Of a stretch of 64,000 nucleotides of DNA, positions 2,943-63,730 are shown piece by piece. How positions within the stretch are numbered: the first letter of the stretch is position 1; each line of letters opens with the position of its first letter. This DNA is from Gammaproteobacteria bacterium (GTDB taxonomy: Bacteria > Pseudomonadota > Gammaproteobacteria > Ga0077554 > Ga007554): the NCBI GenBank assembly GCA_016191235.1, contig JACPOZ010000013.1, forward strand, positions 1,400-65,399, written 5' to 3'. The position numbers and the translations under genes are program-made. The notes beneath the pieces are model-generated. The model did not search any database. It had not been told where the DNA came from and saw only the letters and a list, made by a program, of their open reading frames with translations.

Positions 2943-5639
2943 ATGATGCACGACATTTTTTTCGCGCTTGAACAGGGCGCAACATTATTGACCGCTAACA
3001 GGCGTCTGGCGCGTCATTTGTGCTGTATGTTTGATGCCCGTCAGGAGGCGAAAGGACGCGCGGCATGGCGAAGTGCCGACGTTCTGCCATTGCCCGCCTG
3101 GCTGGGGCGGTGTTGGGATGACATGGCGGAGAGCGCCACGCTGGGAGAGCATCCCGCGCTGCTAAATACCCAGCAGGAACTGACGCTGTGGGAACGGATC
3201 ATCACCGAGTCGCCGCAAGGGCAGGGGCTGTTGCGCGTTTCCGCTACGGCGCAGGACGCGCTGGAGGCATGGGCATTGCTCATGCAATGGAAGGTCATGC
3301 TTGATGGCAGGAATAATATCTTCAATGAGGATGTCCTGGCAGTCCAGCGATGGGCGCAGTCTTTTGAAGAACTCTGCCGTGTGTCTGGATGGATGGAGAA
3401 TGCCCGGTTGCCGGATTTTATCGCGCGGCAGATTCACGCCGGCGCATTGAAAGCGCCACGCCATCTCCTGTTGGCGGGATTTGATGAGTTGACTCCGCAG
3501 CAGCAGGCCCTGTTCGAGGCGTTGCGGGCGGCAGGCAGTGAAGTGAGCGAAGTTCAACTGCCGTCCTTCCCGCAGAGCCGGGCACGGCGCGTTGGATTTG
3601 CCGATTCCGATGCCGAGATCGCCTTCGCGGCACGTTGGTCTCGCCATCTGCTGGAACAGGGGCATGGCGGGGCGATAGGCGTGGTCATCCACGACCTGGG
3701 TACACTACGGGAAAAGGTGGCGCGAATTTTTAATGACGTGCTGTTGCCTGCCTCCATCATGCCCGGCGAGCCAGCGGATGTATCGCTCTACAATATCTCC
3801 TTGGGTACACCCCTGTCCGATCAGCCCCTTATCAATGCCGCCCTGCTGATTATCGAAATGGCGCAGGGAAAGTTGCCGCTGGAAAAGCTGGGGGCCTTGT
3901 TGTGCTCGCCGTTTTTGGCGGGAGGCGAGCAGGAAATGACACGCAGGGGGCTGCTGGATGCGCGGTTGCGCCGCTTTGGTGAGTTGACAGTCAGCGTGGA
4001 TGAGATAAAGCGCCACGCCCTCACTGCGGATGCCTGTCCGCTGCTCGGCGCGCGCCTGCGGCAGTGTATCGAGGTGATGCATACCTTGCCGCGCCATCAG
4101 CTTCCCAGTGCATGGGCGGCAACATTCCCTCGCTTGCTGGTGGCCATGGGCTGGCCGGGTGAACGCCCGCTGGATAGCCACGAATATCAAACGGTGATGG
4201 CCTGGCGTGAGCTACTGGCGGATTATGCGAGGCTGGATGAGGTGGTGGCAAGGCAAAGCCTCAACGAGGCACTGGCGCGTCTGCGGAAGATGGCCGCCGA
4301 CACGCTGTTTCAGCCGCAGGGGATGGATGCCCCAATACAGATCCTGGGCGTGATGGAGGCGGCGGGGATGCACTTTGATCACCTCTGGGTGATGGGCTTG
4401 CACGATGAGGTATGGCCGACGCCGCCGCGTCCCAATCCGTTTCTGCCGCTCTCGCTGCAACGCACGCAAGGCCTGCCGCATGCCTCTGCGCCGCGCGAAC
4501 TGGCATTCGCCCGGCGCATGACGGAAAGGTTGCTCGCCAGCGCTCCGGAAGTGGTGATGAGCTACCCGCAACGCGACGGCGATCGTCACCTGCGCCCCTC
4601 GCCGCTCATCGTCAGCCTGGAAGAAGCCGTGCCAGAGGGGCTGCCAGGCTATATGAGCGCGGCGCAAATACCTTCCTATGCGGCTGTCACGTACCAGGCA
4701 GCGGCTATCGAGAGTATGGGAGATTATCAGGCCCCTTCGTTGCCGGAAGGCTCGCTGGCCTCCGGCGGTACCGGAATTTTCAAGCAACAAGCCGCATGTC
4801 CATTTCGCGCCTTTGCCGAACATCGCCTGGGTGCGCGGCCATTGGCAACCACCCAGATCGGCTTGAATCCCATGGAGCGAGGGCAGCTTTTGCACGCGTC
4901 ATTGGAGCAGGCGTGGCAAAAACTTCACTCTTACGAAAGGCTGTGCAGCGCTTCCGACGAAGCGATAAACGATATCGTCACGCAGGCTGTTACGGCAGCC
5001 ATAGGCGCTATGGCAGAAAAACGGCGGCTTATCTTCACTGAAAAATTCACGGAACTGGAAAAAAACAGACTGGAGAAACTCGTCACCGCCTGGCTGGCGC
5101 TGGAAAAACAGCGTGCGCCTTTTACGGTGTTTGAGCCGGAACAGGAACGTGTGGTGCAGGTCGGCGGGATTAACGTGACCACCCGCATCGACCGCATTGA
5201 CCAACTGCCGGACGGTAGACAGGTCATCGTCGACTATAAGACGGGTGTTTCAGATACAGGCGGCTGGTTCGGTGATCGCCCGGACGAACCCCAGTTGCCT
5301 CTGTATTGCGCCTTTAATGAACAAGAGGTGGCGGCGCTGACGTTTGCGCAAGTCAGAAGCGGTGACATGAAATTCAAAGGCCTGGCGCAATATGACGGAA
5401 TAGCCCCCGGCATAAAGGCTATCGGCAAAATCGAAAGCATATCTTCGTGGCATGGCCTCGTCGAGGAATGGAGGGCGACGCTGCACAACCTGGGCGCAGC
5501 GTTCCGCACCGGCCATGCGCCGGTTGACCCGAAGAATCCGCCTCAGACATGCAAATTTTGCGCGCTTACACCGCTGTGCCGCATTCATGAGCATGATGGG
5601 GTGGGGCTTGAGGGCGACGCGCAAGAAGCTGGAGAATGA
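2943..5639 (+). CDS. PD-(D/E)XK nuclease family DNA repair protein (AddB-like, with Fe-S Cys cluster)
   Basis: 898 aa. The C-terminus has a RecB-type nuclease motif (IDRIDQLPDGRQVIVDYKTG ... QLPLY). It is bracketed by one upstream Cys (QQAACPFRAF) and CKFCALTPLC (C-X2-C-X5-C), as in AddB-type iron-staple nucleases. Confidence 0.7.
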   Translation: MMHDIFFALEQGATLLTANRRLARHLCCMFDARQEAKGRAAWRSADVLPLPAWLGRCWDDMAESATLGEHPALLNTQQELTLWERIITESPQGQGLLRVSATAQDALEAWALLMQWKVMLDGRNNIFNEDVLAVQRWAQSFEELCRVSGWMENARLPDFIARQIHAGALKAPRHLLLAGFDELTPQQQALFEALRAAGSEVSEVQLPSFPQSRARRVGFADSDAEIAFAARWSRHLLEQGHGGAIGVVIHDLGTLREKVARIFNDVLLPASIMPGEPADVSLYNISLGTPLSDQPLINAALLIIEMAQGKLPLEKLGALLCSPFLAGGEQEMTRRGLLDARLRRFGELTVSVDEIKRHALTADACPLLGARLRQCIEVMHTLPRHQLPSAWAATFPRLLVAMGWPGERPLDSHEYQTVMAWRELLADYARLDEVVARQSLNEALARLRKMAADTLFQPQGMDAPIQILGVMEAAGMHFDHLWVMGLHDEVWPTPPRPNPFLPLSLQRTQGLPHASAPRELAFARRMTERLLASAPEVVMSYPQRDGDRHLRPSPLIVSLEEAVPEGLPGYMSAAQIPSYAAVTYQAAAIESMGDYQAPSLPEGSLASGGTGIFKQQAACPFRAFAEHRLGARPLATTQIGLNPMERGQLLHASLEQAWQKLHSYERLCSASDEAINDIVTQAVTAAIGAMAEKRRLIFTEKFTELEKNRLEKLVTAWLALEKQRAPFTVFEPEQERVVQVGGINVTTRIDRIDQLPDGRQVIVDYKTGVSDTGGWFGDRPDEPQLPLYCAFNEQEVAALTFAQVRSGDMKFKGLAQYDGIAPGIKAIGKIESISSWHGLVEEWRATLHNLGAAFRTGHAPVDPKNPPQTCKFCALTPLCRIHEHDGVGLEGDAQEAGE

Positions 5640-5703: not shown

Positions 5704-6960
5704 ATGGCCTACGATAAGATTACCGTCCCCGCTAATGGCGAGCGGATTACCGTCAATGCGGATTTTTCGCTGAATGTCCCGTCTCGCCCGATTATCCCAT
5801 TCATCGAAGGGGATGGCATCGGCGTGGATGTCACGCCAGTCATGTGTACTGTGGTCAATGCGGCGGTAGATAAAGCCTATAACGGTGCCAAATCCATCGC
5901 CTGGATGGAGGTGTATGCCGGGGACAAGGCGACGCAGGTCTATGGCAAGGATGTTTATCTGCCGGAAGAGACCATGCACGCGCTGCGTGAGTATCCCGTC
6001 TCCATCAAGGGGCCGCTGGCGACACCGGTGGGTGGCGGTATCCGCTCCCTGAATGTCGCCTTGCGGCAGGAGCTGGATCTTTATATCTGCCTGCGCCCGG
6101 TGCGTTATTTTACCGGCACCCCCAGCCCCGTGAAGGCGCCGGAGAAGGTGGACATGGTGATCTTCCGCGAAAACTCCGAGGATATCTACGCCGGTATCGA
6201 GTGGGCGGCGGGTACGCCCGAGGTGCAGAGGGTGATCGATTTTCTGCGCAATGAAATGGGCGTGAAAAAGATCCGTTTCCCCGATAGCTCCGCCATCGGC
6301 ATCAAGCCGGTGTCGCGCGAGGGCACCGAGCGTCTGGTGCGCAAGGCGTTACAGTATGCCATCGACAATGGACGTGACTCCGTGACCCTGGTGCATAAGG
6401 GCAATATCATGAAATTTACCGAAGGGGGATTCAAAAGCTGGGGTTATGAGCTGGCCAAGGCTGAATTCGGTGCCCAGGAGATCGGCAGCGGGCCGTGGTG
6501 CCGCATGAAAAACCCCAAGACTGGCGCTGAGATCCTCGTTAAGGACATTATCGCCGACGCCTTCCTCCAGGAGATCCTGTTGCGTCCCGAGGATTTCAGC
6601 GTGATCGCCACGCTCAACCTCAATGGCGATTACATCTCCGATGCGCTGGCCGCGCAGGTGGGCGGTATCGGCATCGCCCCCGGCGCCAATCTGTCCGATT
6701 CCATTGCCATGTTCGAGGCGACGCACGGCACCGCTCCCAAACATGCAGGCAAGAATGATGTCAATCCCAGTTCCGTGATCCTCTCTGCGGAGATGATGCT
6801 GCGACACATGGGCTGGTGTGAGGCGGCGGATCTGATCACCAGGGGCGTTGCAGGCGCCATTGCCAGCCATACCGTTACCCACGACCTGGCGCGATTGATG
6901 CCGGAAGCAACGCAGGTGAGCTGTTCCGGGTTTGGCGAGGCGGTTATTGCTAATATGTAA
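5704..6960 (+). CDS. icd: NADP-dependent isocitrate dehydrogenase
   Basis: [18 protein letters not shown]...[11 protein letters not shown]... is collinear with enterobacterial Icd. GGAG lies 5 nt upstream of the ATG at 5704. The track ORF starts 6 nt earlier at a GTG. Confidence 0.95.
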
Positions 6961-6964
6961 GCTG

Positions 6965-7131
6965 CTAGCAGCCTGTCTGACTTAGGTCGAATCTACTGCG
7001 AAAGCGGGAGAGCGGTCCATTTTTCCGCTATTTTTCGTTACACGTGCCAGCTATTCTCCTCAAAATAGCGGAAAACTGTCCTCGCTCCCCCACTTTCTCG
7101 CTACGACCCCCTAAGTCAGACAGGCTGCTAG
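6965..7131. repeat. 167-bp imperfect palindrome with perfect 22-bp terminal inverted repeats (MITE-like / bidirectional terminator)
   Basis: CTAGCAGCCTGTCTGACTTAGG at 6965..6986 is the exact reverse complement of 7110..7131. The interior also pairs imperfectly (…GCGAAAGCGGGAGAGCGG…TTTTCCGCTATTTT / AAAATAGCGGAAAA…CCTCGCTCCCCCACTTTCTCGC). Confidence 0.8.
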
Positions 7132-10739: not shown

Positions 10740-12575
10740 ATGGTTCGTCGCATGGGCAGTAGCGGAGGCGGAAAAATCCTGAGGGCGATGGTTGCCGTGT
10801 TCGCCGTGGTGTCAGGGATGCTGCTTGCGGGATGCGGCTCCAGTGGCGGTAGTTCAAGTGGCGGGGGTGACACCACCAAGCCTTCCGTCATACTCAGCAA
10901 TCCTGCCAAGGATGCTACTGGCGTACCCGTAGCTACCGTGCTTTCGGCTTCATTTTCCGAGGCAATGAAGCTTTCGACTATCTCCGATGTCACGCTTATC
11001 GTGACTGCGGGGAGCGACCAGGTTGCCGGGAAGGTCGGTTTCAGTACGGCCTCCAACGCTGCGACTTTCACGCCCGATGCCCCCCTAAAGTACGATACAA
11101 CCTATACCGTAACGATCAAAGCGGCATCTGTGACGGATATGTCAAACAATGCGTTGAACGCCAACTCGTCGGCGGGAGATTATGTCTGGAGCTTTACTAC
11201 TACCCGGTCTGGGTCGGTGGATAACAGCTTTGGTGGAGGTACAGGAGGTACAGGAGGTACAGGAGGTACAGGAGGTACAGGAGGTACAGGAGGTACAGGC
11301 AATGCCTCGGCTGTTATTACCCCATTTTTAAACAACGGCTCAAGTGAGGCCAGAGCCATCGCCATCCAGCCGGATGGCATGATCGTCGCCGCCGGTTCGG
11401 CCTGGAATGGTAAAGACTGGGATTTTGCGCTGGCGCGCTATAACCCGGATGGCGTCCTTGATAAGAATTTCGGTAAAGATGGCATCATGGTGCTTGATAT
11501 TGGCAGCGGCAGGGATGACATAGCAAATGCCGTAAAGATTGATTCGGACAGCAGGATTGTGGTGGCGGGATTTGTTTCCAAAGGCCCCAACGACAACGAC
11601 TTCGCCGTTGTTCGCTATAGTTCGGATGGCAGGCTTGATAACGCTTTCGGAACGAACGGTATCGTAATTACCGATTTTAGCGGGCGGAATGATGTGATTT
11701 ATGCGCTTGCGATTCAGCCGAAGGACAAAAAAATTGTCGTGGCGGGTTTTAACAGTTATCAGGGGGCTGCGACTGTTCCCATATTTGTCGATGTATATCA
11801 GGACAAGGCCGTGATATTTGGGGAACGCTTGACTGCTGTGGATTTTGCGCTGGCCCGCTACGACGAATCCGGCAGGTTGGATGAAGATTTTGGTGACGGC
11901 GGCACGGTAACCACGGCTGTTGGCAATAATGCCAGCATTGCCCGCGCCATTGCCCTCCAGGGGGACGACAAAATCGTTGTGGCGGGGTATGCCGATAACG
12001 ATGGCAAGGCCAATTTCGCGTTGGCCCGCTACAATTCGAACGGTAGCCCGGATAACAGTTTCTCGGTTGATGGTAAGGTAATTACGTCTGTCGCACAGGG
12101 GAAGGATAATGGCGCAATGTCTGTGGCCATCCAGTCGGATGGAAAAATTCTCGCGGCGGGTAATGTTGAGAATGATTATGGCGGTACGGATTTCAGCCTT
12201 GCCCGTTATAATGCGGATGGTAGCCTGGATAGCGGTTTCGCGGATGACGGCACAGTAATTACACCCGTTCCTGCGAAAGGCAATGCAGTGGCGTACGCTG
12301 TCACCATCCAGAAAGACGACAAAATCCTCGCGGTGGGGGTGGCCTCGAACGGCAATGACGACGATTTCACTATGGTTCGCTATCGTGCGAATGGCTCGCT
12401 GGACAACAGTTTTGGATTAGGTGGAAGGGTGATCACACCCGTACGTTCCCGAACGGATGTGGCATTTTCTGTGGCGATTCAGTCCGCGCCAGATAATAAG
12501 ATCATTATGGCAGGAAGAAGCTTACGTCCCACCGGTGTGCTCTATGATTTCGCCTTGGTCCGTTATTGGCCATAA
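10740..12575 (+). CDS. secreted lipoprotein: Ig-like (SbsA/Big-type) domain + (GGT)n linker + delta-60-repeat beta-propeller region
   Basis: Lipobox LLAGC at aa 28-32. An N-terminal Ig-like domain follows (…DATGVPVATVLSASFSEAM…TYTVTI…). Then about ten repeats of the DFALARYN.DGSLD..FG.DG type occur roughly every 50-60 aa. Confidence 0.75.
   Translation: MVRRMGSSGGGKILRAMVAVFAVVSGMLLAGCGSSGGSSSGGGDTTKPSVILSNPAKDATGVPVATVLSASFSEAMKLSTISDVTLIVTAGSDQVAGKVGFSTASNAATFTPDAPLKYDTTYTVTIKAASVTDMSNNALNANSSAGDYVWSFTTTRSGSVDNSFGGGTGGTGGTGGTGGTGGTGGTGNASAVITPFLNNGSSEARAIAIQPDGMIVAAGSAWNGKDWDFALARYNPDGVLDKNFGKDGIMVLDIGSGRDDIANAVKIDSDSRIVVAGFVSKGPNDNDFAVVRYSSDGRLDNAFGTNGIVITDFSGRNDVIYALAIQPKDKKIVVAGFNSYQGAATVPIFVDVYQDKAVIFGERLTAVDFALARYDESGRLDEDFGDGGTVTTAVGNNASIARAIALQGDDKIVVAGYADNDGKANFALARYNSNGSPDNSFSVDGKVITSVAQGKDNGAMSVAIQSDGKILAAGNVENDYGGTDFSLARYNADGSLDSGFADDGTVITPVPAKGNAVAYAVTIQKDDKILAVGVASNGNDDDFTMVRYRANGSLDNSFGLGGRVITPVRSRTDVAFSVAIQSAPDNKIIMAGRSLRPTGVLYDFALVRYWP
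11235..11297 (+). repeat. perfect tandem repeat, 7 x 9 bp (GGAGGTACA), encoding (GGT)7
   Basis: Seven identical units read directly at 11235..11297. They lie in frame inside the lipoprotein gene. Confidence 0.95.
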
Positions 12576-35798: not shown

Positions 35799-35983
35799 AT
35801 CCTGAAAACGGCAGTTGGACGGGGTGGAGTGTGCGGTTTTCGGGGTGCAGGGCAAGGCGCGACGACGCGGAATGGTTGTTCCATTCCAAGGAGTTGCAAC
35901 GCTGCCATGCGCACTGAAAACCGTGCAATCCACCTCGTAGCGGGCAGCCGTACAGGGAAGCGGTCAACTGCCGTTTTTAGGAT
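35799..35983 (+). other. 185-nt nested-stem element (candidate cis-regulatory leader RNA or MITE) ending 5 nt before the next start codon
   Basis: The outer stem ATCCTGAAAACGGCAGTTG (35799..35817) pairs with CAACTGCCGTTTTTAGGAT (35965..35983) over 19 bp with one G-U. The inner stem GGTGGAGTGTGCGGTTTTC (35823..35841) pairs with GAAAACCGTGCAATCCACC (35916..35934). Internal hairpins include GGAATGG-TTGTT-CCATTCC. Confidence 0.55.
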
Positions 35984-55071: not shown

Positions 55072-55184
55072 GACGTTTTTTTGCTCCCTGCTTGAAAGAT
55101 TTTAATGAGCGGCAAAGTTATCATGACCGGCATACGGGTGCCAACTGATCATTTGATGTTATCTATACCAACAACCCCCCTATT

Positions 55185-55222
55185 TTTTCGTGCCTTTCGT
55201 GCCTTTCGTGTTTTTCGTGGAT
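55185..55222. repeat. four tandem 9-bp units containing TTTCGTG
   Basis: TTTCGTGCC TTTCGTGCC TTTCGTGTT TTTCGTGGA. The last 17 nt (TTCGTGTTTTTCGTGGA) also occur at the outer end of the 61.4-kb inverted-repeat arm. Confidence 0.8.
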
Positions 55223-55298
55223 CACGTCTTCCCACTGGATGTGCGTCACATTGGCCGCACGTTTTCTTGACAGGCTGGGGTGGGAATTGGTAGTGTTT

Positions 55299-59283: not shown

Positions 59284-59389
59284 TGATTTTTAACAAGGGT
59301 ACGCTGAGCCGTGCCCTTGTCTTGTTTAAGCTGTAAATCAGGCTGTGCGTAGCATTGCCTGGCAACTAACCAGGTGGAATTTATACCGA

Positions 59390-60532
59390 ATGGCGAAACG
59401 CGATTATTACGAAGTGCTGGAGGTGGCGCGCAATGCCAGCGAGGCCGAGATCAAAAAGGCATACCGGCGCCTCGCCATGAAACACCACCCCGACCGCAAT
59501 CCTGATGACAGTGCGGCGGAGGAGCAGTTCAAGGAAGCCAAAGAAGCCTATGAAGTGCTTAGCGATGAACGCAAGCGCGCCGCTTACGACCAGTTCGGCC
59601 ATGCCGGCGTAGATCCTTCCGCAGCGGCGGCGGGTGGCGCGGCCGGGGGCGGCAACTTTGGTGACATCTTCGGTGACATCTTTGGGGACATCTTTGGCGG
59701 TGCAGCAGGGGGTCGGGCGGGCGGTAGCCGTGTCCACCGTGGCGCGGATTTGCGCTACAACATGGAGCTGGATCTGGAAGAGGCGGTGCATGGCACCACT
59801 ACCAAGGTGCGTATCCCCACCCTGGTCGCGTGCTCGGTGTGTGAAGGCTCGGGCGCCAAGAAAGGCACCAGCGCGACAACCTGCACAACCTGCGGCGGCC
59901 ATGGCCAGGTGCGTATGCAGCAAGGCTTTTTCTCGTTGCAGCAGACCTGCCCCAAATGCCGTGGTGCCGGGAAAATCATCGCCAATCCCTGCGGGACGTG
60001 CCATGGGCATGGGCGTGTGCAGGAGCAAAAAACCCTGTCAGTCAAGATTCCTGCCGGGGTGGATAACGGCGATCGCATCCGTCTGACTGGCGAGGGCGAG
60101 GCGGGTGAGAGCGGTGGGCCACCCGGTGATCTTTATGTCCATATCCACGTGCGGGAACACGCCATCTTCACGCGTGAGGATAATCACCTGATGTGTGAGG
60201 TACCCATCAGTTTTGTTACCGCAACGCTGGGCGGCGAGCTGGAAGTGCCGACGCTGGGTGGCCAGGTTGTCTTGAAAATACCGGCGGAAACCCAGTCCGG
60301 CAAGATGTTCCGCCTGCGCGGCAAGGGTGTCAAATCCGTTCGCGGTGGAGATGTCGGCGACCTGTTGTGCAGGGTGGTTGTCGAAACCCCGGTAAAACTC
60401 ACGCGCCAGCAAAAGGATCTGCTGATCGAGTTTGAAAAAAGCATGAAAGAAGACAGCGCCATTAAGCACAGCCCACGCTCGAGCTCCTGGCTTGATGGGG
60501 TGAAGAAATTTTTTGATGCGATGAAATTTTGA
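59390..60532 (+). CDS. dnaJ: molecular chaperone DnaJ
   Basis: J-domain ([12 protein letters not shown]…HPDRN), G/F-rich region and four CxxCxGxG repeats. The track ORF starts 45 nt earlier. Confidence 0.97.
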
Positions 60533-60553
60533 GTAGCGGGGCCGATGTCACGG

Positions 60554-60706
60554 CCTCTTTTTGTCCACGAAAAACACATTGTCACGAAATAAAACAAAAA
60601 CATGGATTGCTTCAGCGCAATTCACCGGATGGGTGGAAAGTAACACGCGATATGTATTTGAATATTCCCGTGTTTTTTTCGTGACTTTCGTGGATAACTG
60701 AGTTTT
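60554..60706. repeat. left arm of a roughly 150-bp inverted repeat (MITE-like unit)
   Basis: Its reverse complement aligns along its whole length with 61316..61457, at roughly 90% identity by eye with one 8-nt and one 1-nt indel. The arm itself begins (TCCACGAAAAACAC) and ends (GTGACTTTCGTGGA) with an inverted motif. Confidence 0.85.
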
Positions 60707-60721
60707 TTAGCAAAATAACTG

Positions 60722-61270
60722 TCAGGGATTGCCGGTTTCTTTGTCCGTACATGACGGCTCCACTTCAAATCCAAGATGGTAGTAGGCGTGCCAGCGGCTT
60801 TTTTCCTTGAGGGGCAATCCTGACCATACGCTAAGGTGTATGCCTTCCTTGCTGGTGCATTGAGAAAAATACGCAGGTTTTTTTTCGAGGCCAAAGCGGG
60901 CCTGTACCGTGCCATTTTTCTCTTTCAATACGACATGCTTTACAATAATTCCGAATCCAAAGGCGGCAGCCTGATCGTTTTGAAGTAATTTGAGCGCATA
61001 GCGTGTTTGCGGCTTACCGCCGTCTATCGAGACCGTTTGCGTACCATTATCGTTACATGATGACCCCAACACTTCGGCCTTAATCAACGATTGCGGTTCG
61101 CCTGGGCCGCCTGGCGTTACAATCATGACCCGCATGCCTTTGATCAGGTCCGCGCGTTGAGTTTCCAGGCATTGCAGGCCATCTTTCTGGGTGAAGACCA
61201 CACCCACAAGAGATGCATAGCGGGAGGCGTGCGATTTGCCCGCCGTTGCCGCGATGGATGGCGCTGTCAT
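60722..61270 (-). CDS. hypothetical protein (orphan ORF inside the inverted-repeat cassette)
   Basis: 182-codon ORF filling the space between the two arms. GC is lower than the neighbours and I recognise no motif or signal peptide. Coding status is unproven. Confidence 0.45.
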   Translation of the reverse strand: MTAPSIAATAGKSHASRYASLVGVVFTQKDGLQCLETQRADLIKGMRVMIVTPGGPGEPQSLIKAEVLGSSCNDNGTQTVSIDGGKPQTRYALKLLQNDQAAAFGFGIIVKHVVLKEKNGTVQARFGLEKKPAYFSQCTSKEGIHLSVWSGLPLKEKSRWHAYYHLGFEVEPSCTDKETGNP

Positions 61271-61315
61271 AGCCGTGTGAGCAGCGCTGTGAAGATCAGT
61301 CCGCGTTTCAACCTG

Positions 61316-61457
61316 AAAACTCAGTTATCCACGAAAGTCACGAAAAAACACGAAAATATTCAAATACATATCGCGTGTTACCTGTCACCCATCCGATCAA
61401 TTGATGAAGCCATCCATGTTTTTGTTTTATTTCGTGTTTTTCGTGGACAAAAAGAGG
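61316..61457. repeat. right arm of the inverted repeat
   Basis: AAAACTCAGTTATCCACGAAAGTCACGAAAAAACACG…TTTCGTGTTTTTCGTGGACAAAAAGAGG is the inverted copy of 60554..60706. Confidence 0.85.
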
Positions 61458-61466
61458 TTTTAAGGC

Positions 61467-62750
61467 TCAAGAATCAGTCAGCTCGTACACAATCTTGCCT
61501 GCCAGCAGCGTATGCGTCACGCGGCCTTTGAATTCCCACCCCATGAATGGCGTGTTACGGCCGCGGCTTAGCAGGGTGCTTTCCGTCAATTCCCAATAGC
61601 GTTGCGGGTCGAAAATGCAGATGTCCGCAGGCGCCCCCGAGCTTAGCGTGCCTGCCTCAATGCCGAGGATTTGCGCGGGTTTATGGGTCAGGCACGCCAG
61701 AACTTCGCTGAGCGTGAGCACGTCTTCATCCACCAGCCGCAGGCTGAGCGGCAGCAGGGTATCAAGGGAGGATATGCCCGGCTCAGTGGCGCTGAAGGGG
61801 GCCAGCTTGGCATCCGGTTCATGCGGCTGGTGGTCGGAGCAGATCGCCGCCACAGCGCCACGCGCCAGGCCTGCGCGCAAGCCGTCACGGTCGCGTTGGG
61901 TGCGCAACGGCGGGGTGACATGGCATTGGCTGTTGAAGTCGGCCACGTCCATCTCCGTGAGATATAGATGATGCGCGCTCACGTCCGCGCTGACCGGCAG
62001 ACCCTCGTAACGTGCGCGCGCCACCATGCGTACTGCGCGTGCCGTAGACAGCCTGCAAAAGTGCGCGCGCACCCCGGTCTGTTCGATTAGCATCAGATCG
62101 CGCGCTACCGCCGCAGTCTCGGCGGACTCGGGGATGGCGGGCAAGCCAAGGCGCGTGCTGACAGCGCCTTCGTGCATGCAGCCCTTATTGCGCAGCCAGG
62201 GGTCTTCGGGGTTTAGAAATACCGTCAGGCCATGCGTGGCTGCGTATTCCATGGCGCAGCGCAACACGTGGGCATTGGTGACAGGGTGCAGAGCATTGCT
62301 GACCCCGGCGCAGCCTGCCGCTTTTAGTGCCGCCATTGCGCTCAAACTTTCCCCCGCCAACCCTTCGGTGAGTGCGCCCAGCGGTACAACCCGTGCGTAT
62401 CCTGCCGCCTCGGCGCGGTTGCGGATGAGCTCGATGACTGCGGGGGTGTCGATCACGGGGTCAGTATCCGGCGGGCAACACAGGGTAGTGATGCCCGCGC
62501 TGGCTGCCGCGAAGGTTTCGCTGGCGATGGTGCCCTTATGTTCCTGGCCAGGTTCGCGCAGGCGTGCGCACAGGTCTACCAGGCCGGGGCAAACGATCAG
62601 GCCGGTGGCGTCGATCTCGCGTTCCGCAGTAAAGCCTTGAAAATCGCTGCCGATGGCCTGGATGCGGCCGTCGGCGATGAAAACATCCTGCACGCCATCA
62701 ATGGCGTTGGCAGGGTCGATAACACGTCCGTTGGTAATGCGCAGGCGCAT
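61467..62750 (-). CDS. pyrC': dihydroorotase-like protein, probably the non-catalytic PyrC' partner of aspartate carbamoyltransferase
   Basis: 427-aa amidohydrolase fold directly downstream of pyrB, with a 1-nt overlap (TGATG). The position of the metal-binding DxHxH motif reads GLVDLCARLREPG, so both His are missing. Confidence 0.75.
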   Translation of the reverse strand: MRLRITNGRVIDPANAIDGVQDVFIADGRIQAIGSDFQGFTAEREIDATGLIVCPGLVDLCARLREPGQEHKGTIASETFAAASAGITTLCCPPDTDPVIDTPAVIELIRNRAEAAGYARVVPLGALTEGLAGESLSAMAALKAAGCAGVSNALHPVTNAHVLRCAMEYAATHGLTVFLNPEDPWLRNKGCMHEGAVSTRLGLPAIPESAETAAVARDLMLIEQTGVRAHFCRLSTARAVRMVARARYEGLPVSADVSAHHLYLTEMDVADFNSQCHVTPPLRTQRDRDGLRAGLARGAVAAICSDHQPHEPDAKLAPFSATEPGISSLDTLLPLSLRLVDEDVLTLSEVLACLTHKPAQILGIEAGTLSSGAPADICIFDPQRYWELTESTLLSRGRNTPFMGWEFKGRVTHTLLAGKIVYELTDS

Positions 62751-63730
62751 CAGATGATCTCTCCTTCAAGATTCGCGCGAGAGGACATGGCCATCGACAT
62801 GATCGCCATGCGAACCGCGATGCCATGTGTGACCTGCTCAAGGATCACGGAGCGTGTGCCGTCGGCAACCGCCGAGTCGATCTCGACGCCGCGATTGATG
62901 GGGCCGGGGTGCATGACGATGACATCCGGCTTGGCGAGTGCAAGTTTTTCTTCAGTCAGCCCGTAAAGACGAAAGTATTCATGTTCACTGGGCAGCAAAG
63001 CGCCGCGCATGCGTTCGTGTTGCAGGCGCAGCGTGATCACCACATCAACATCGCGCAATCCCTCGCGCAGATCGTGGTGGACATGCACACCGAGGGCCTC
63101 GACATCAGCGGGCATCAGGGTTTCAGGCCCGATGACGCGCACCTCGTTGACGCCGAGCGTGGTCAGTGCATGTATCTGCGAGCGCGCCACTCGCGAATGC
63201 AGAATGTCGCCGACGATGGCGATATTGAGCGGCGCAAAGTCCTTTTTATGGCGGCGAATGGTGAACATGTCCAGCATCGCCTGGGTAGGATGCGCATGGC
63301 GGCCATCACCGGCATTGATCACGCTGATGTGCGGTGCCACATGCTGGGCGATAAAGTGCGCCGCACCGCTGCGGTCGTGGCGCACCACGAACATATCGCA
63401 GTGCATCGCCTGAAGGTTGTGCAGCGTGTCGAGCAGGCTTTCGCCCTTGCTTGTCGCCGAGGCCGCGACATTGATGTTAAGCACGTCCGCTGAGAGGCGC
63501 TTGGCGGCGAGTTCAAAGGTGGTGCGGGTGCGCGTGCTGGCTTCGAAGAACAGATTGACGATGGTCTTGCCGCGCAGCAGGGGGACTTTCTTGATGGATT
63601 GCGCGGTGACGCCGGAAAACGATTCGGCGGTGTCCAGTATCTCCACCAGCAGTTTGCGGTTCAGACCCTCAATGGTTAGAAAGTGGCGCAGACGGCCGTT
63701 TTTGTCGAGCTGTATATTGTGGCGTCTCAT
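62750..63730 (-). CDS. pyrB: aspartate carbamoyltransferase catalytic subunit
   Basis: …[13 protein letters not shown]… (STRTR carbamoyl-phosphate motif), …HPTQA…, …MHPGP…. Confidence 0.95.

Follow-up and report, generated by a model that had tools for sequence, protein, structure and literature searches.

Probable independent insertions of two miniature inverted-repeat transposable elements around a resident operon gene between dnaJ and pyrC' of an uncultured gammaproteobacterium

We analyzed a window of 64,000 nucleotides (the whole stretch of DNA presented above, positions 1,400 to 65,399 of contig JACPOZ010000013.1, assembly GCA_016191235.1, Gammaproteobacteria bacterium) and within it the segment that separates the convergent genes dnaJ and pyrC'. 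The first-pass annotation had described this segment as a cassette, in which a single orphan open reading frame (ORF) of 182 codons and of unknown function is bracketed by two inverted copies, or arms, of one sequence. The comparisons reported here point to another origin for this arrangement, namely two copies of one miniature inverted-repeat transposable element, or MITE, that were probably acquired independently on either side of a resident gene of the pyrR-pyrB-pyrC' operon. The features of the locus are listed below under the names that this reading gives to them.

59345 to 60532, plus strand: dnaJ, convergent with the ORF (synteny ppnK-hrcA-grpE-dnaK-dnaJ seen in the related contig L002)
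60538 to 60557, plus strand: intrinsic-terminator hairpin of dnaJ (terminator scan), with its 3' side and T-run now partly from the truncated outer MITE end
60554 to 60711, plus strand: downstream MITE copy (type A) between the ORF and dnaJ; inner end ...CGTGGATAACTGAGTTTTTTAG(C)
60722 to 61270, minus strand: 3' 182 codons of the resident gene (ORF list; alignment of homologues)
61267 to 61311, minus strand: 5' remnant of the resident gene, with a TTG start at 61311-61309 followed by signal-peptide codons MKRGLIFTALLT
61307 to 61311, minus strand: right copy of the target-site duplication, TTGAA, containing the regenerated TTG start of the ORF
61312 to 61465, minus strand: upstream MITE copy, type A, 154 bp, at the overlap of the pyrC' stop and the ORF start; termini CCTTAAAACC... 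and ...GAGTTTTCAGG
61466 to 61470, minus strand: left copy of the target-site duplication, TTGAG, containing the TGA stop of pyrC'
61467 to 62750, minus strand: pyrC' (dihydroorotase-like, 427 amino acids), following pyrB; Pfam matches in relatives are Amidohydro_1 and DHOase
62750 to 63730: pyrB, upstream of pyrC'

The neighboring genes from 51.7 kb to the end of the window are comEC, ppnK, hrcA, grpE, dnaK, dnaJ, pyrC', pyrB, and pyrR. All of them are housekeeping genes and no recombinase gene is found among them, as the first-pass annotation had stated. A promoter scan of positions 60300-61700 returned no sigma-70-like promoter, and the sole notable terminator-like site was the dnaJ hairpin. 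Rfam gave no match around the cassette at E<=1 and none in the whole window at gathering scores. The GC content is 37-39% in the arms, 52.1% in the ORF, and 56.6% in the window.

Querying the window with the arm by BLASTN aligned positions 60554-60706 to the opposite strand at 61457-61316 (86.9% identity in 153 columns, E 5e-49), which confirmed that the two are inverted copies of each other; identity without gaps is 91.8%. Both the 8-nt and the 1-nt indel noted previously were recovered (8-9 nt and 1 nt), together with scattered substitutions and a 2-nt indel that had been missed. The repeat finder breaks the arm pair into I1, I2, I3, and I5, and also detects a terminal inverted repeat inside each arm, TCCACGAAA.../...TTTCGTGGA (pairs I4 and I9). 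The earlier view of each arm as a MITE-like unit with its own terminal inverted motif was therefore upheld. The full elements are slightly longer than the arms first marked and extend over 60554-60711 and 61312-61465.

The element measures approximately 155-165 bp, with termini CCTTAAAACC... and ...TTTTTAGG (ending TTTTAGG) and a consensus of approximately 165 bp (CCTTAAAACCTCTTTTTGTCCACGAAAAACACGAAATTCACGAAATAAAAC ... TTTTCGTGTTTTTTCGTGACTTTCGTGGATAACTGAGTTTTTTAGG). Its two ends align with one another over approximately 45 nt (CCTTAAAACCTCTTTTTGTCCACGAAAAACACGAAA against CCTAAAAAACTCAGTTATCCACGAAAGTCACGAAA), forming imperfect terminal inverted repeats that contain three CACGAAA heptamers each at a spacing of 9-10 bp. 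The sizes of individual copies range from 154 to 165 bp, or from 192 to 215 bp in those with an internal insert, and two copies hold an additional GC-rich insert of approximately 55 nt. The element is AT-rich, its coding capacity is confined to spurious ORFs of at most 51 amino acids, and each copy folds on itself through the terminal repeats (z -3.3 to -4.9). In the window, CACGAAA/TTTCGTG heptamers are over-represented, with 18 occurrences where 8.5 are expected; three small patches account for 13 of them.

Further copies were retrieved at unrelated loci of a sister genome. An exact-pattern scan of one genome per species identified four more loci, all of them in the metagenome-assembled genome CAMTYI01, and a local BLAST search of this genome revealed a fifth, more diverged copy. 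The CAMTYI01 copies are intergenic, often located within operons, and found in either orientation relative to transcription. The gene pairs on either side of them are parE and parC; aroK and aroB; a ferredoxin-like gene and an ABC ATPase gene; a DUF3426 gene and prmA; and a cytochrome c-like gene and pnp. BLASTN of the arm against plasmid and phage collections gave no match.

The copies are flanked by AT-rich target-site duplications of 5 bp, two of which are perfect and five of which agree at four of the five positions. By our own calculation, the chance of a flank match of at least 4/5 at one site is approximately 1.6%. The flanking sequences are as follows.

L130: TTAAG / TTAAG, perfect 5 bp
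L070: ATGAA / ATGAA, perfect 5 bp
Upstream copy of the window: TTGAG / TTGAA, 4/5
L007: ATCAA / ATCAT, 4/5
L008a: TCCAT / TTCAT, 4/5
L008b: GTCAT / TTCAT, 4/5
L010: ATAAA / ATAAG, 4/5

According to a working definition, MITEs are small elements with terminal inverted repeats, target-site duplications, and dispersed copies (PMC10969869). The element falls within this definition on account of its small size, its terminal inverted repeats, its target-site duplications, its dispersed copies, and the filled and empty sites described below. We thus consider it very probable that each arm is one copy of a MITE, and that the two copies were independently acquired around a resident gene.

Filled and empty versions of both insertion sites were found among related contigs. 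The genomes that share the locus, whose records are labelled "Gammaproteobacteria bacterium", are taken to be sister species of one uncultured lineage, and the flanking genes are 91-96% identical at the nucleotide level among the window and these genomes. The states of the two sites are distributed as follows.

Upstream site (junction of pyrC' and the ORF): filled in the window and in L006 (5838-5999); empty in L001, L002, L004, L011, L013, L014, and L135
Downstream site (ORF-dnaJ spacer): filled in the window, L014, and L001; empty in L002 to L005; occupied by a different element in L006, L011, L012, and L013

The contig L002 has the entire synteny of the window, with ppnK-hrcA-grpE-dnaK-dnaJ converging on ORF-pyrC'-pyrB, and zero arms; its ORF-dnaJ spacer is 58 bp long and contains one bidirectional terminator hairpin. 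In every related contig with upstream sequence the ORF directly follows pyrC' on the same strand. Moreover, in L001, L002, L004, L011, L013, L014, and L135 the start of the ORF overlaps the stop of pyrC' (TTG/TGA; TCTTGAA) and the pyrB/pyrR synteny is kept. The ORF is thus a resident chromosomal gene, the last of the pyrR-pyrB-pyrC' operon, and not cargo.

The two arms could be traced to different relatives. Orthologues of the downstream copy are found in L014 (3607-3758) and L001 (6607-6723), with identical junctions and a shared diagnostic CAGCGCAATTCACC indel that, in an alignment of ten copies, is restricted to the left arm of the window and these two downstream copies. In the same alignment, the diagnostic changes of the right arm of the window are common to the upstream copy of L006. 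Since the arms share their diagnostic changes with different relatives, they have separate histories, each of which appears from these alignments to predate the split between these genomes. The 87-92% identity between the arms is ordinary family-level similarity, and it is by chance that two separate insertions ended up inverted relative to each other, without any design in the pairing.

These histories bear directly on the earlier suggestion of a composite mobile unit, in which the two inverted MITE copies would act as transposon ends that move the ORF. The copies do lie in inverted orientation and have like ends on the outside, and so resemble composite transposons, in which two inverted mobile-element copies bracket a gene. 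Pairs of MITEs can also mobilize the DNA between them, as exemplified by the MITE-flanked class 1 integrons of Acinetobacter. The bracketed gene, however, lies at its ancestral locus, at a fixed position and in a fixed orientation in every related contig, including those with zero arms and with one arm. Furthermore, the left copy has lost its outer terminus, and for each arm an orthologue exists as a solo insertion, the two being in different relatives. The upstream copy is flanked by a 5-bp target-site duplication of its own and was therefore inserted alone. With empty and half-filled orthologous sites around a gene that stays in place, we regard a composite unit as extremely improbable. The observation that would have counted against the first-pass interpretation, namely arms confined to this locus in a spacer conserved among relatives, was not made: copies exist elsewhere and the spacer is variable among relatives.

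A word-indexed protein search with the ORF product retrieved only seven homologues, all at least 84% identical. Six of these seven are 196 amino acids long and have an N-terminal signal-peptide-like segment that the 182-amino-acid ORF of the window is without. The ratio of nonsynonymous to synonymous substitution rates (dN/dS) among the orthologues is 0.14-0.33, and the resident gene is therefore under purifying selection. Alignment of the window with six orthologues located a 1-nt deletion between positions 61275 and 61274 (CACAC-GGCT, as opposed to CACACTAGCT or CACTGGCC in the orthologues). As a consequence of this deletion, the TTG start at 61311 is out of frame with the 182-codon ORF, and translation from it ends early at a premature TGA (61269-61267); the listed ORF of 182 amino acids begins at an internal ATG. 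The gene of the window also carries six private amino-acid changes (including P14H, P47R, G110V, and H134Y) and three private synonymous ones. Several of the six affect otherwise conserved prolines and glycines, and these changes weakly suggest relaxed selection in this copy. The gene of the window is thus probably a decaying pseudogene, unless the contig contains an assembly error.

The term orphan does not suit this gene. Beyond the purifying selection among its orthologues, a profile search against 1.84 billion cluster representatives matched 784 clusters at E<=1e-3, of which 356 were at E<=1e-10, and most of the best 150 of the 784 matches are 170-240 amino acids long. In an alignment of 78 sequences, residues G37, C152, E156, G157, and C188 are invariant and C86, Y105, F149, S154, H159, W163, G165, W174, H175, Y177, and D183 are nearly so. 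AlphaFold applied to this alignment produced a confident all-beta model with a predicted local distance difference test score (pLDDT) of 87.2 and a predicted template modeling score (pTM) of 0.81, and the run with 7 near-identical sequences was uninformative (pLDDT 45). Foldseek found nothing convincing in the PDB for the model of pLDDT 87 (best E 0.046, all TM-scores <=0.32), the best match in a sequence search of the PDB had a non-significant E of 0.53, and no match in Pfam or NCBIfam was obtained for the ORF or for its distant homologues. The description of the ORF as a gene of unknown function is therefore consistent with these searches, though the gene belongs to a widespread family. The gene neighborhoods of two distant homologues are unrelated and have no link to pyr genes. 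The product of the intact gene (approximately 196 amino acids) is predicted to be a secreted or periplasmic all-beta protein with conserved cysteines. Its members, proteins of approximately 190 amino acids, have a signal peptide as well as Cys, His, Trp, and Glu residues at conserved positions, and the family is a candidate new domain family.

The precise positions of the two insertions suggest what each of them did to the operon. The upstream copy lies between TTGAG (61470-61466) and TTGAA (61311-61307), and the empty site reads TCTTGAA. This copy inserted exactly in the TTGA overlap of stop and start, duplicating TTGA(A), and because of this 5-bp duplication both the stop of pyrC' and the TTG start of the ORF were regenerated. 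A gap of 155 bp now lies between the two genes, whose translational coupling would have been lost. In L006, the right-hand copy of the duplication is GTGAA and the gene starts with GTG.

The downstream copy starts one or two bases past the ATTTTG of the native spacer. Its outer terminus CCTTAAAA and approximately 20 nt of native spacer are absent in the window and in L014. The empty site of L002 has GGGGCCGTTGACACCGGCCCC at the dnaJ terminator hairpin, and in the window the ...AAAGAGG of the element abuts the CCG of the terminator stem; hence the dnaJ hairpin at 60538-60557 has a T-run derived from the element. Comparison with the empty site suggests that a small later deletion removed the outer tip of the downstream copy and in this way fused its T-run to the hairpin. 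An operon transcript reading through both copies could form a stem of approximately 140 bp and be cleaved, which would be a by-product and not a function.

A selected function had nevertheless been among the earlier proposals, with the arms serving either as sites for inversion or excision of the segment or as a long stem in the RNA that would insulate the ORF against convergent transcription. In the minimum-free-energy fold of the minus-strand transcript (931 nt), the two arms are indeed paired with each other (-406 kcal/mol, z -24), and arms of 150 bp with 87-92% identity are long and similar enough for homologous recombination. Any long inverted repeat, however, would fold likewise, and we saw no sign of selection on the stem. 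The neighborhood has no recombinase gene, the ORF has a single orientation in all related contigs, both arms occur together only in the window genome among these contigs, and the gene they enclose is frameshifted there. We therefore consider a selected switch or insulator very unlikely, and retain neither of the two proposals. Inversion driven by RecA may occur in a subpopulation.

The ORF-dnaJ spacer is an insertion hot spot. A second type of MITE occupies it in L006 (6594-6790), L011 (approximately 3600-3760), L013 (approximately 3600-3770), and L012 (cut by the contig end). This type has the termini CCTAAAAACGGCGATT...TTTTTTTAGG and arrays of CTCTGCG/CGCAGAG heptamers at 9-bp spacing. In L001, the downstream MITE copy ends at a C-terminal fragment of an IS66-family transposase (6740-7030; Pfam DDE_Tnp_IS66, E 1.3e-10), which truncates it. 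This remnant coincides with a change of synteny, with Wzy_C and glycosyltransferase genes in place of dnaJ.

Several observations weigh against two MITE insertions around a resident, decaying gene. Of the two copies, only the upstream one shows a target-site duplication, since the downstream one lacks its outer end, and the available 64 kb of the window genome hold two full copies and two related elements. An assembly error could account for the frameshift. The alleles at the two sites, whether filled, empty, or alternative, do not track how similar the flanking genes are: L011, to which the window is closest (94.5% identity in pyrC' and 96% at the 3' end of dnaJ), carries the other element and has no upstream copy. 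This distribution suggests that either recombination between lineages or recurrent insertion at hot spots is required. Finally, neither the window nor the related loci nor 678 kb of metagenome loci that carry the end motif yielded a transposase or an autonomous element having such termini.

Inverted pairs of ends more than 600 bp apart were found only in L124 and L025, where they enclose a Mg-chelatase-like gene and a flavin adenine dinucleotide (FAD) oxidoreductase-like gene; these were rejected as autonomous parents since the enclosed genes are ordinary. On inspection by eye, thirty long ORFs that adjoin solo ends resemble housekeeping genes. The element would be moved by a transposase supplied in trans, and by its termini and duplication length the parent could belong to the IS1380 family of insertion sequences (IS), which is a lead and not a demonstrated membership. 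In ISEcp1, a member of this family, the left inverted repeat is CCTAGATTCTACGT and the right one ACGTGGAATTTAGG, and direct repeats of 4-5 bp such as TCATA, GATAA, and ATTTC are generated (PMC7864471). The termini CCT(T/A)AAAAC and GTTTT(N)AGG, together with the 5-bp duplication, resemble those of IS1380-type elements, with the limit that the resemblance is short. The outermost termini (CCTA... / ...TTTAGG) and the AT-rich 4-5-bp duplications are alike, but only approximately 4-6 terminal bases agree, and no IS1380-type transposase is located beside any copy found. To our knowledge, no heptamer arrays have been reported for ISEcp1.

Among known MITEs, Chunjie of Geobacter uraniireducens, as described in a review (PMC10969869), is likewise small and non-coding, with terminal inverted repeats, target-site duplications, and size variants. 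It is intergenic, including between co-directional genes of an operon, and leaves the flanking reading frames intact. On the other hand, the sequences are unrelated as far as could be checked, the copy number here looks low (approximately five recovered from the sister genome), and the elements described here have terminal repeats made of heptamers spaced at 9 bp. The Correia elements of Neisseria (CREE) and the ERIC/IRU elements of enterobacteria are also palindromes of approximately 100-200 bp that are co-transcribed with neighboring genes and form long hairpins. RNase III cleaves the RNA of Correia elements at their terminal inverted repeats (PMC10969869), and by analogy it is plausible that the RNA of the present elements is cleaved in the same way. 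However, Correia elements duplicate TA and carry promoters and an IHF site, whereas here the duplication is of 5 bp and the scan found no sigma-70-like promoter. Short, widespread intergenic palindromes that often lie between convergent genes or within operons are typical of REP/REPIN sequences, which RAYT transposases mobilize. REPs are nevertheless GC-rich hairpins of 20-40 nt with a conserved tetranucleotide and without target-site duplication, whereas the elements described here are AT-rich (37-39% GC), approximately 160 bp long, and have long array-type repeats and 5-bp duplications. Membership in REP/REPIN was rejected on these grounds.

The heptamer arrays of the element ends are very common in environmental bacteria. 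A motif scan of metagenome contigs detected at least 120 contigs with TCCACGAAA-NN-CACGAAA-N2-3-CACGAAA, and the 120 metagenome loci that were fetched (L015-L134) span 37-67% GC. Examples include L039 (from 2069), L101 (from 2874), and L130 (9057-9220), and some arrays comprise at least seven units. A relaxed pattern revealed 97 inverted end pairs in the fetched loci, mostly 50-150 bp apart, and the 63 cores of at least 40 nt fell into 49 unrelated clusters. The outer flanks of 151 ends are varied: CCTWAAAAC stands approximately 18 nt further out in 18 of them, a TGATGTTAC-type flank is found in 20, and 113 have other sequences. In 76% of the ends, TCCACG is preceded by G.

Two related elements are present in the window besides the two arms.

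55152 to 55252: short related element in the divergent ppnK-hrcA spacer, with a single array in which four TTTCGTG heptamers recur exactly every 9 bp, and with outer flanks of the TGATGTTA type
35801 to 35981, minus strand: MITE-like element of 181 bp whose terminal inverted repeat of 19 nt is near-perfect (CCTAAAAACGGCAGTTGAC / GTCCAACTGCCGTTTTCAGG), with a CTTAT/ATTAT target-site duplication

The first of these is missing from the orthologous spacer of L002, and a conserved (heat-shock) regulatory role for the TTTCGTG array upstream of hrcA was rejected for this reason. The second has a GC-rich core and no heptamer arrays, and its outermost termini are of the same kind as those of the arms; it sits directly upstream of the start of a plus-strand gene. 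Outer termini of the form CCTWAAAAC...GTTTTNAGG are shared by this element and by the CTCTGCG-array element of the relatives. Transposon termini and heptamer arrays thus look like separable modules. Elsewhere in the window, a perfect 9-bp tandem repeat (GGAGGTACA, 7.2 copies) lies at 11235-11299 and may be an in-frame coding repeat.

The breadth of the motif could also be read as a sign of host regulatory DNA, in which the arrays would be binding sites of a host DNA-binding protein, the arms would be regulatory modules and not selfish DNA, and the ends TTATCCACG and TTGTCCACG would resemble DnaA boxes. The motif G-TCCACGAAA-NN-CACGAAA-NN-CACGAAA is conserved across more than 120 contigs from metagenomes, whose GC content spans 37-67%; its cores are mostly unrelated (63 cores in 49 clusters) and its outer flanks are of three kinds or more, a pattern suggestive of constraint on the array itself. 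Target-site duplications, however, and the polymorphism in presence and absence are the behavior of insertions, the array of the ppnK-hrcA spacer is absent from L002, and the same outer termini occur on the array-less element at 35801-35981 and on an element with different heptamers. The match to the DnaA box covers only 7-8 positions out of 9, and the comparison of TTATCCACG and TTGTCCACG with such boxes was dropped because the bases other than TCCACG are variable. A role as host regulatory DNA is accordingly very unlikely.

A further possibility, which we put forward tentatively, is that the inverted pair G-TCCACGAAA-(NN-CACGAAA)n around an arbitrary core defines an undescribed and widespread class of small bacterial palindromic elements. 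This proposal is based on the presence of the motif in more than 120 contigs of 37-67% GC, on the unrelated cores and the three or more outer termini, and on the occurrence of these termini with a CNCAGAG heptamer or with no array. If such a class exists, the 9-bp-spaced arrays might be a portable module selected in its own right and not the inverted repeats of one IS family, an idea that is likewise no better than doubtful. The arrays could then be binding sites for a transposase or a host protein, or a slippage-proof former of hairpins. A full-text search for the heptamer-array strings returned one irrelevant match, and Rfam returned none.

Taken together, we assign a probability of roughly 85% to the reading that in this region two ordinary MITE insertions flank an operon gene that is resident and probably decaying, and that the "cassette" is not a unit. 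It would then be a routine footprint of mobile DNA, neither a new mobile nor a switchable unit, and for the locus itself the outcome is mostly one of clean-up: the gene should be annotated as a frameshifted operon gene and not as a mobile orphan. Two aspects are less ordinary. On the one hand, the upstream copy is a clear natural case of a transposable element in a 4-nt stop/start overlap in which both codons were regenerated by the duplication, and such regeneration shows how operons tolerate insertions. On the other hand, the locus is linked to a widespread heptamer-array end motif for which no description was found in the literature string search or in Rfam. If this motif has a dedicated binding protein, it would represent a large overlooked family of mobile or structural DNA.

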